In this document: one piece after another, positions 10,801 through 10,868 of the stretch
Numbering within the stretch: the stretch's first letter is position 1
Layout: every line of letters starts with the position of its first letter
Origin: Schleiferiaceae bacterium
GTDB taxonomy: Bacteria; Bacteroidota; Bacteroidia; Flavobacteriales; Schleiferiaceae
DNA length: 27,956 nucleotides
Assembly (NCBI GenBank): GCA_044352085.1
Contig: JBILEM010000001.1
Coordinates: 1-27,956, forward strand
Direction: 5' to 3'
Program-made: the position numbers and the translations under genes
The notes under the pieces: generated by a model
Database searches by the model: none
What the model was told of the DNA's origin: nothing
What the model saw: the letters and a program-made list of their open reading frames with translations, nothing else

Positions 10801-10855
10801 CGGATCGCGGACGCAAAGCCCCATTCTCCCGGAACCTGTTTCAGAACATAATTAA
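7841..10855 (+). CDS. dnaE2: Error-prone DNA polymerase III alpha subunit (DnaE2-type)
   Basis: Degenerate PHP domain (RTAYS, LALTD, GVE), GRGSGANS, catalytic PDFDLDF and KFDILG, YQEDVI, FAKGHSASYA, and a C-terminal OB fold. No tau-binding CTD. Start probably GTG 7841, 4 nt after the SRAP stop, rather than TTG 7769. Confidence 0.9.
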   Translation: MAAVRTAYSFGFGLIALEELVERAVLDDHSHLALTDIGHTAALLPLLQKAKRAGINIIPGVEIRLNNKFKYSILALNKVGLNSLHAWLSASGASSPCTPAFSKKESLSAECACIYPWDAEGPIPPEAWIGVRPWEIWAAAKKWGKNNDRCIAWMPFTLPTANDFKAHRVLRAIGQNALLENTGPQTTCDPREVWMTRAQWEQAYQEAPVLVQRTDQLLKSCAVSLPMGAEAAPANLQTYTDTPENDIQLLRQLCEDLLPQRYPKASREVRERVEKELATIQAKGFNAYFLINWDLVRYAQSRGFHHVGRGSGANSIVAYILQITNVDPIELDLYFERFINIYRTSPPDFDLDFSWTDRPEVTRYLFSRYDHVALLGAYSTYQFRSVVREVSKAFGLPKTDIDRLANGEAPKDQWGRAVLHFGHRLHNLPSRMTLHSSGILIANKPLTEFTSTFLPPKGYPTVHFDMLAAEDIGLAKFDILGQRGIAKIADAARLARTNQPDKPAVNLSEIQKFKSDPAALRLLSTGGAMGCFYVESPAMRMLMTKLQTNSYVDLVAASSIIRPGVSSSGMMRQYIVRHRQPERRSDAIPALLSLLPDTYGVMVYQEDVIKVAHHYGGLTLAEADVLRRSMSGKFRSREEFHEVRTQFFKNGEKRGAPPEELAEIWRQMESFAGYAFAKGHSASYAVESFQSLYLKAHFPLEYLTATLNNGGGFYRKSVYVREAMRCGARIEPPCVNQGGWNYLLDGNRLFIGFSQISGVDESFCQRIEKERTARGPFDSLGHFVDRMQQPGHSVPLETLLVLIRVGAFRFAGIQSRALLWEAHRLLGHKTPPKQTESLFESRQTPLALPVLQTPPMEQAFEEWELLGFPLCDPTVLLAEPLGSWVPPDEWPQWIGRKIRAVGQTVSVKDTRTAQGQWMKFGTFEDPRGQIFDTVHFPPVVQKYPFRGGGIYELEGVVSEEFEYCCLDVHFMRKLTLIEDPRYADQRAGSRTQSPILPEPVSEHN

Positions 10856-10868
10856 TATTATGTTAAAT
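10841..10868 (+). other. dif-like XerCD recombination site
   Basis: TCAGAACATAA (XerC arm) - TTAATA (6-bp spacer) - TTATGTTAAAT (XerD arm, identical to the E. coli dif arm). The inner CATAA of the XerC arm is also conserved. Confidence 0.85.

Follow-up and report, generated by a model that had tools for sequence, protein, structure and literature searches.

A predicted dif site overlapping the 3' end of a dnaE2-type polymerase gene in a freshwater Schleiferiaceae bacterium

The 27,956-nucleotide stretch of Schleiferiaceae DNA analyzed here (termed the window) contains a 28-bp sequence that is very probably a real single-copy chromosome-dimer resolution site of a freshwater Flavobacteriales bacterium, and its assignment as the dif site of this chromosome is made with high confidence. 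The XerC-side arm and part of the spacer also form the last codons of a DnaE2-type polymerase gene. The best reading of the sequence comparisons is a genuine dif whose separation from dnaE2 appears to have eroded in a small-genome lineage, with the resulting overlap being tidy but probably incidental and without a function of its own. Taken jointly, a genuine dif and an incidental overlap with dnaE2 are considered likely. The window is one entire contig of a 1.49-Mb MAG composed of 249 contigs (84% complete, 56% GC, longest contig 28 kb), and the coordinates of the features are collected in Table 1.

Table 1. Features of the window in and around the predicted dif site
Feature	Position	Strand	Basis
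Non-canonical LexA-like repressor gene (HTH_3 and peptidase S24), first gene of the operon ending at dif	4877-5677	+	Pfam
DinB-type Y-family polymerase (Pol IV) gene	5687-6901	+	Pfam IMS, IMS_C, IMS_HHH_1
SRAP (YedK-like SOS-response-associated peptidase) gene	7096-7836	+	Pfam PF02586, 176 bits
DnaE2-type (second DnaE) polymerase gene	7769-10855, likelier from 7841	+	ORF, Pfam, tail alignments
Predicted 28-bp dif site	10841-10868	+	Sequence, uniqueness, conservation, skew switch in relatives
XerC-side arm, TCAGAACATAA	10841-10851	+	
Central region (spacer), TTAATA, 6 bp	10852-10857	+	
XerD-side arm, TTATGTTAAAT	10858-10868	+	
Intrinsic terminator hairpin of the TPR gene, between the TPR gene and dif	10932-10961	-	Folding
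TPR-repeat protein gene, conserved right-hand neighbour of dif	10982-12313	-	Pfam TPR families
gyrA, in the conserved dif-TPR-gyrA block	12323-14905	-	Pfam DNA_topoisoIV and DNA_gyraseA_C

The site is composed of two 11-bp arms with partial dyad symmetry about a 6-bp centre, and the XerD arm and the inner part of the XerC arm are of the conserved type. The motif TCAGAACATAA-TTAATA-TTATGTTAAAT reported in the first-pass annotation is present as described, including the 6-bp spacer, the inner CATAA of the XerC arm and the match of the right arm to the XerD arm of E. coli. The last of these is an exact identity over TTATGTTAAAT with the right arm of E. coli dif (28-mer GGTGCGCATAATGTATATTATGTTAAAT, given in Kono et al. 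2011, PMC3025954), which shares the 28-bp 11-6-11 layout and the inner CATAA. Differences from E. coli dif occur in the outer XerC arm, which is TCAGAA in place of GGTGCG, and in the spacer, where TTAATA replaces TGTATA. By analogy with E. coli dif, XerCD would be expected to bind and recombine at the predicted site, with XerC on the left arm TCAGAACATAA, XerD on the right arm TTATGTTAAAT and strand exchange across TTAATA once FtsK-gamma activates XerD at the septum, by which chromosome dimers would be resolved at the terminus.

The 16 specified positions of the motif have a chance expectation of 2.8e-6 per window and 1.5e-4 per 1.49-Mb MAG when calculated from the base frequencies of the MAG itself (56% GC), the window value being of the same order as the ~1e-5 estimated initially. 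The nearest matches to this pattern elsewhere in the MAG have mismatches at 3 of the 16 positions. A 28-column profile built from 11 sites, all from other genera, gives 40.1 bits for the window site and 12.7 bits for the runner-up, and the genome-wide scan that had been proposed as a check thus returns the window site as the sole good match in the 1.49 Mb scanned of this 84% complete MAG. With up to one mismatch allowed, each of the eight genomes of the genus contains the core pattern CATAA-N6-TTATGTTAAAT exactly once, and the seven congeners with their single matches include genomes that are 98-99% complete. The pattern is found in 25 of 41 relatives from the order, nearly always once per genome, whereas reversed-pattern controls give counts near zero. 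Absence of the motif from orthologous loci had been named as grounds for abandoning the assignment, and it is present in all eight genus genomes. Alignment of the sites across genera shows that the right arm, the AT-rich 6-nt spacer and [C/T]ATAA are kept, whereas the outer six positions of the left, XerC-side arm are different in nearly every genus.

The genes for the recombination machinery are encoded by the MAG. An XerD-like recombinase is present on contig C94 (318 bits to TIGR02225), and FtsK on contig C194 has its alpha, motor and gamma domains. The XerC-like gene is a fragment cut by the edge of contig C168, and congeners that are 94-98% complete have exactly one XerC-like and one XerD-like gene, the XerC-like gene being full length there. 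The single copy, the XerC-like, XerD-like and FtsK-gamma genes and, in relatives, the position at the GC-skew switch are features shared with the E. coli dif/XerCD-FtsK system, and with its conservation the predicted site behaves as a chromosomal dif. It differs from E. coli dif in overlapping coding sequence and in being known from sequence alone.

As the MAG is broken into contigs of at most 28 kb, the GC skew was read in two closed relatives (sampled in 20 segments of 20 kb) and in a contiguous 400 kb of the congener G006. In the closed 3.07-Mb genome G029, negative skew extends from 0.07 to 1.30 Mb and positive skew from 1.45 to 2.99 Mb, which places dif, at 3.03 Mb, inside the interval where the sign switches from positive to negative. 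The same switch in the closed 3.43-Mb genome G023 falls between 1.28 and 1.45 Mb with dif inside at 1.364 Mb, and the strand bias of long ORFs in both genomes agrees with replication converging at dif. The skew is weak within the genus itself. In G006 it is positive as far as 60 kb, level between 60 and 120 kb, and negative through the following 280 kb, and dif at 108 kb lies on this flat plateau ~24 kb from the cumulative maximum. Of 20 loci oriented by dif, 16 show a higher GC skew on the left than on the right flank, a purely descriptive count since the loci are related. The local skew in the window is +0.025 to the left and -0.010 to the right of the site, as read from a contig of a fragmented MAG. 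The cumulative-skew check suggested earlier is therefore answered from relatives, with dif in the switch interval of G029, G023 and G006 but with the G006 maximum 24 kb off.

The position of dnaA was considered as a proxy for the origin and rejected. In contrast to E. coli, dnaA in the relatives is not opposite dif and lies near it and near the skew terminus, at distances of 70 kb in G006 (C1, 178273), 98 kb in G023 (C1, 1462261), 324 kb in G029 (C1, 280888) and 222 kb in G021 (C1, 1185286). The skew and the gene-strand bias place the origin away from dnaA, for example at ~1.3-1.45 Mb in G029.

The last codons of the dnaE2 ORF, tca gaa cat aat TAA, occupy 10841-10855. The four final sense codons, S-E-H-N (10841-10852), coincide with the left arm plus base 1 of the spacer, and the stop TAA (10853-10855) with spacer positions 2-4, so the original description of the XerC arm and spacer as the S-E-H-N-stop end of dnaE2 stands. 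The sharing of the same DNA by the polymerase tail and the XerC arm and spacer holds in seven of the eight species representatives of the genus, in which the protein ends in SP[IL]L[PS]EPVSEHN and the stop codon lies in the spacer. Synonymous differences among these overlapping congeners occur upstream (ccc/cct, ctg/ctt, agc/agt) and within the arm itself (TCA/TCG), indicating that the dnaE2 tail is read as protein. The eighth congener, G003, has a DnaE2 with 58% identity that ends in ESVPLG, with its TAG stop 21 nt before dif, and in the sister genera the gap between stop and dif is larger, ~113 nt in g14 and ~100 nt in g7. The DnaE2 tails beyond the conserved DPRY(A/E)D vary between genera in both length and sequence. 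Judged from these gene ends, which were to be compared among close relatives as a further check, the overlap is the derived state of one clade, with the basal congener G003 and the sister genera keeping a gap.

A stepwise origin of the overlap can be proposed. The dif site would originally have been located in a convergent intergenic gap between an SOS translesion operon (lexA-like, dinB, SRAP and dnaE2) and the TPR-gyrA genes. Some 30 nt between the dnaE2 stop and dif may then have been lost in one clade of a freshwater genus with small genomes (1.6-2.0 Mb), after which the dnaE2 frame would run into the XerC arm and end at the TAA of the spacer. The overlap would be tolerated because exchange between identical sister sites regenerates the original sequence and leaves dnaE2 unchanged, because the outer XerC arm is weakly constrained, and because the final residues of the DnaE2 tail are not conserved. 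The cost to the protein would be just the four imposed tail residues. Among the loci examined the sole other real-looking ORF that touches dif is in G029 (L083, C1 about 3030805), a 479-aa open frame in which the TAA is the first three bases of the XerC-side arm.

The gene that overlaps dif has the Pfam domains PHP, DNA_pol3_alpha, finger and HHH_6. Its longest ORF opens at a TTG at 7769, and the likelier start is a GTG at 7841 located 4 nt past the SRAP stop. It is a second DnaE paralogue because a gene with a stronger PF07733 match, the replicative DnaE, is located elsewhere on contig C20. It is the last gene of a co-directional run of four, following the repressor, dinB and SRAP, and this second Pol III alpha copy in an SOS-type operon with a LexA-like repressor and a Y-family polymerase corresponds to a DnaE2. 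The DinB-type gene scores 291 bits with NCBIfam PRK02406, above the cut-off of 256. The score of the dnaE2 gene with NCBIfam NF004225 ('error-prone DNA polymerase') is 401 bits, below the cut-off of 939, and Pfam and NCBIfam domain searches find no ImuA in the operon, and it is therefore better termed DnaE2-type or dinB-dnaE-type. The name dnaE2 used at the outset is thus appropriate for a second DnaE-type gene in an SOS operon but not in the sense of a canonical imuA-imuB-dnaE2 cassette. Across the genus, identity is ~75% for DnaE2 compared with ~89-91% for DinB and the repressor. In the congener G001 (L070/L025) the DnaE2 match is split, with residues 1-140 in another frame (51% identity) and a longest open frame of 894 aa, suggesting that the N-terminal PHP region is frameshifted or decaying.

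The operon resembles the non-canonical LexA regulon of Bacteroidetes described in passages of Sanchez-Osuna et al. 2021 (PMC8565304), in which an HTH-XRE/S24 repressor recognizes a LexA box CTAA-N5-TTAG and the regulon includes a dinB-dnaE (COG0389-COG0587) operon and a SRAP gene (COG2135). On the basis of those passages the repressor type, dinB-dnaE, SRAP and a similar box are shared. The box here, CTATGTAATTTAG (4842-4854), lies upstream of the repressor and is one mismatch from CTAA-N5-TTAG, the exact form of which is absent from the window. A difference is that here all four genes lie in one run terminating at dif, an adjacency unmentioned in the passages of that paper that were searched. 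Repeated TTGCTAT/ATAGCA elements also occur upstream of the LexA-like gene (window 4824-4874).

To the right of dif, the TPR gene (-), gyrA (-) and a clpB-like gene (+) form with it a block that is syntenic over several families of the order (window 10869-17738; L077-L079, L084 and L087). In several families dif is ~100-130 nt from the TPR stop, and TPR-gyrA-clpB lie on the side of the XerD arm. The order dnaE2(+), dif, TPR(-), gyrA(-) found in the window also occurs in genera g14 and g7, whereas in g13 dinB lies between dnaE2 and dif, and in one g11 genome dif is 3.6 kb off. The 28-mer in genus g7 (L164-L166 in G050, G065 and G074; L076 in G013) is inverted, with the XerD arm facing dnaE2 and flanks as in g1 and g14; from these alignments, dif is flipped in place in that genus. 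The TPR-gene hairpin has a folding energy of -26.4 kcal/mol (z -5.1), and on the minus strand its stem is followed by a run of U. In four lake metatranscriptomes, contigs span the TPR gene and the first part of gyrA (10974-12400), and two of these contigs end at 10974-10976, just past the TPR stop.

The overlap is maintained across species in which DnaE2 is only ~75% identical, and dnaE2 and dif are adjacent in at least three genera; this persistence could also be explained by selection for some coupling between them. A functional overlap or adjacency could act through SOS transcription passing through dif and modulating XerCD, with read-through altering how XerCD occupies or recombines dif at times when dimers are common owing to recombinational repair. 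Alternatively, bound XerCD could be a roadblock that halts RNA polymerase before the stop codon, yielding a non-stop dnaE2 mRNA and limiting the mutagenic polymerase. The geometry of the locus gives this some basis, as the first plus-strand hairpin past dnaE2 is the TPR terminator, which lies beyond dif, so that an operon transcript could reach it only by crossing dif. In g1, g14 and g7 the operon points with its 3' end towards dif, in g13 and the one g11 genome that end is within 3-4 kb of dif, and the overlap itself is kept in seven species. A functional role of this kind is nevertheless unlikely, since inherited synteny explains the adjacency and it is lost elsewhere in the family, dnaE2 and dif being separated by 15 kb in G021 and by 595 kb in G023, and no dif is found within 4 kb of dnaE2 in g2, g5, g6, g18 or g37. 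In g7 dif lies inverted between unchanged flanks, so no fixed dnaE2-dif geometry is kept, and gaps of 21 to 113 nt are compatible with function in the congener G003 and the sister genera. None of the contigs in the four lake metatranscriptomes lies on the dnaE2 end or dif, a result that cannot prove absence of a transcript and that does not inform on the SOS-induced state.

The related proposal at the level of the family is that a damage-inducible operon is kept facing dif, either because transcriptional traffic into the Xer complex couples damage signalling to dimer resolution or because XerCD occupancy truncates the dnaE2 mRNA, and this is quite improbable. The stop codon in the spacer would then be the extreme form of such an SOS-dif coupling. 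The evidence does not require any coupling, and a genuine dif with an incidental overlap is preferred. If the adjacency of the SOS operon were functional, the DNA-damage response would be linked to dimer resolution.

IMEX elements such as CTX-phi, TLC-phi and the gonococcal genetic island use dif as their attachment site, which raises the alternative that the SOS cassette abuts dif as a present or past island of this type delivered to the site. The cassette does end exactly at dif, the HTH domain alone of the repressor has a weak, sub-threshold likeness to the RstR family, and dif-like att sites have been reported to flank microvirus proviruses in Bacteroidales (Krupovic & Forterre 2011, PMC3091885). 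In contrast to these elements, there are no IMEX element genes or provirus here and neither a second or degenerate dif-like site nor a pair of hybrid sites is found in the window or, by the profile scan, in the MAG, where the runner-up is the 12.7-bit match, and each genus genome has one dif only. In another genus (G013) the cassette and the genes upstream of it (HI0933-like and others) occur in the same order, and DnaE2 is present in 52 of 60 genomes of the family, its locus varying among them. A metagenome scan returned eight matches, of which three are true dnaE2-dif junctions, all with an intact dif and no hybrid, and five are chance matches with unrelated flanks. An IMEX island as a recent event is thus largely refuted by the lack of a second site or hybrid junction, and the island explanation in its broader form, past or present, is very unlikely. 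An AT-rich palindrome near a gene end that is fortuitous or has a role other than dif, for example as a terminator-like element or a site for another protein, would suit the AT-rich region between the convergent genes but is exceedingly improbable as an account of the motif in view of the low expectation per MAG, the 11-nt arm identical to that of E. coli, the location at the skew switch in relatives and the persistence of a single copy over an order while the flanks diverge, and a chance origin is excluded because the site is unique and conserved.

The site can be compared with the predictions of Kono et al. 2011 (PMC3025954), in which dif was predicted in all 19 Bacteroidetes genomes examined and 93.9% of the predicted sites were non-coding, so that ~6% were in coding regions, mostly hypothetical. 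The phylum and the criteria (profile match, uniqueness and skew shift-point) are the same. In contrast to those coding-region sites, the overlapped gene here is conserved and identifiable rather than a hypothetical ORF, and the overlap can be followed across a genus in which one congener lacks it, with further genera as outgroups. A literature search for a dif overlapping a stop codon found no paper. The occurrence of dif within coding DNA is therefore already known, and the present case contributes an overlap that is conserved, involves a named gene and has a traceable origin, together with an order-level dif consensus and the family-level dnaE2-dif-TPR-gyrA synteny. The related genera provide a stepwise record of a recombination site and a gene end merging as the DNA between them is lost, and the dif positions that tolerate a coding constraint are identified as those of the outer XerC arm and the spacer. 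The site is also of use as a terminus marker for fragmented MAGs.

Contig breaks occur 100-500 nt from dif in three MAG contigs (G004:C87, G005:C110 and G013:C29), with one contig starting 157 nt before dif, one breaking ~500 nt off and one ending ~100 nt after it. These breaks may be coincidental, given how fragmented the assemblies are, or may reflect variation within the population at dif. A scan of IMG/VR with the dif 22-mer matched 17 low-GC viral contigs, none related to the Schleiferiaceae lineage. Two of these (L188, 1526-1659, and L195, 4647-4752) each contain two perfect 22-mers with identical flanks that are inverted and ~85-110 nt apart, an arrangement that could recall the folded attP of CTX-type phages or be an assembly fold-back, and the other 15 contigs have one copy of the 22-mer each.
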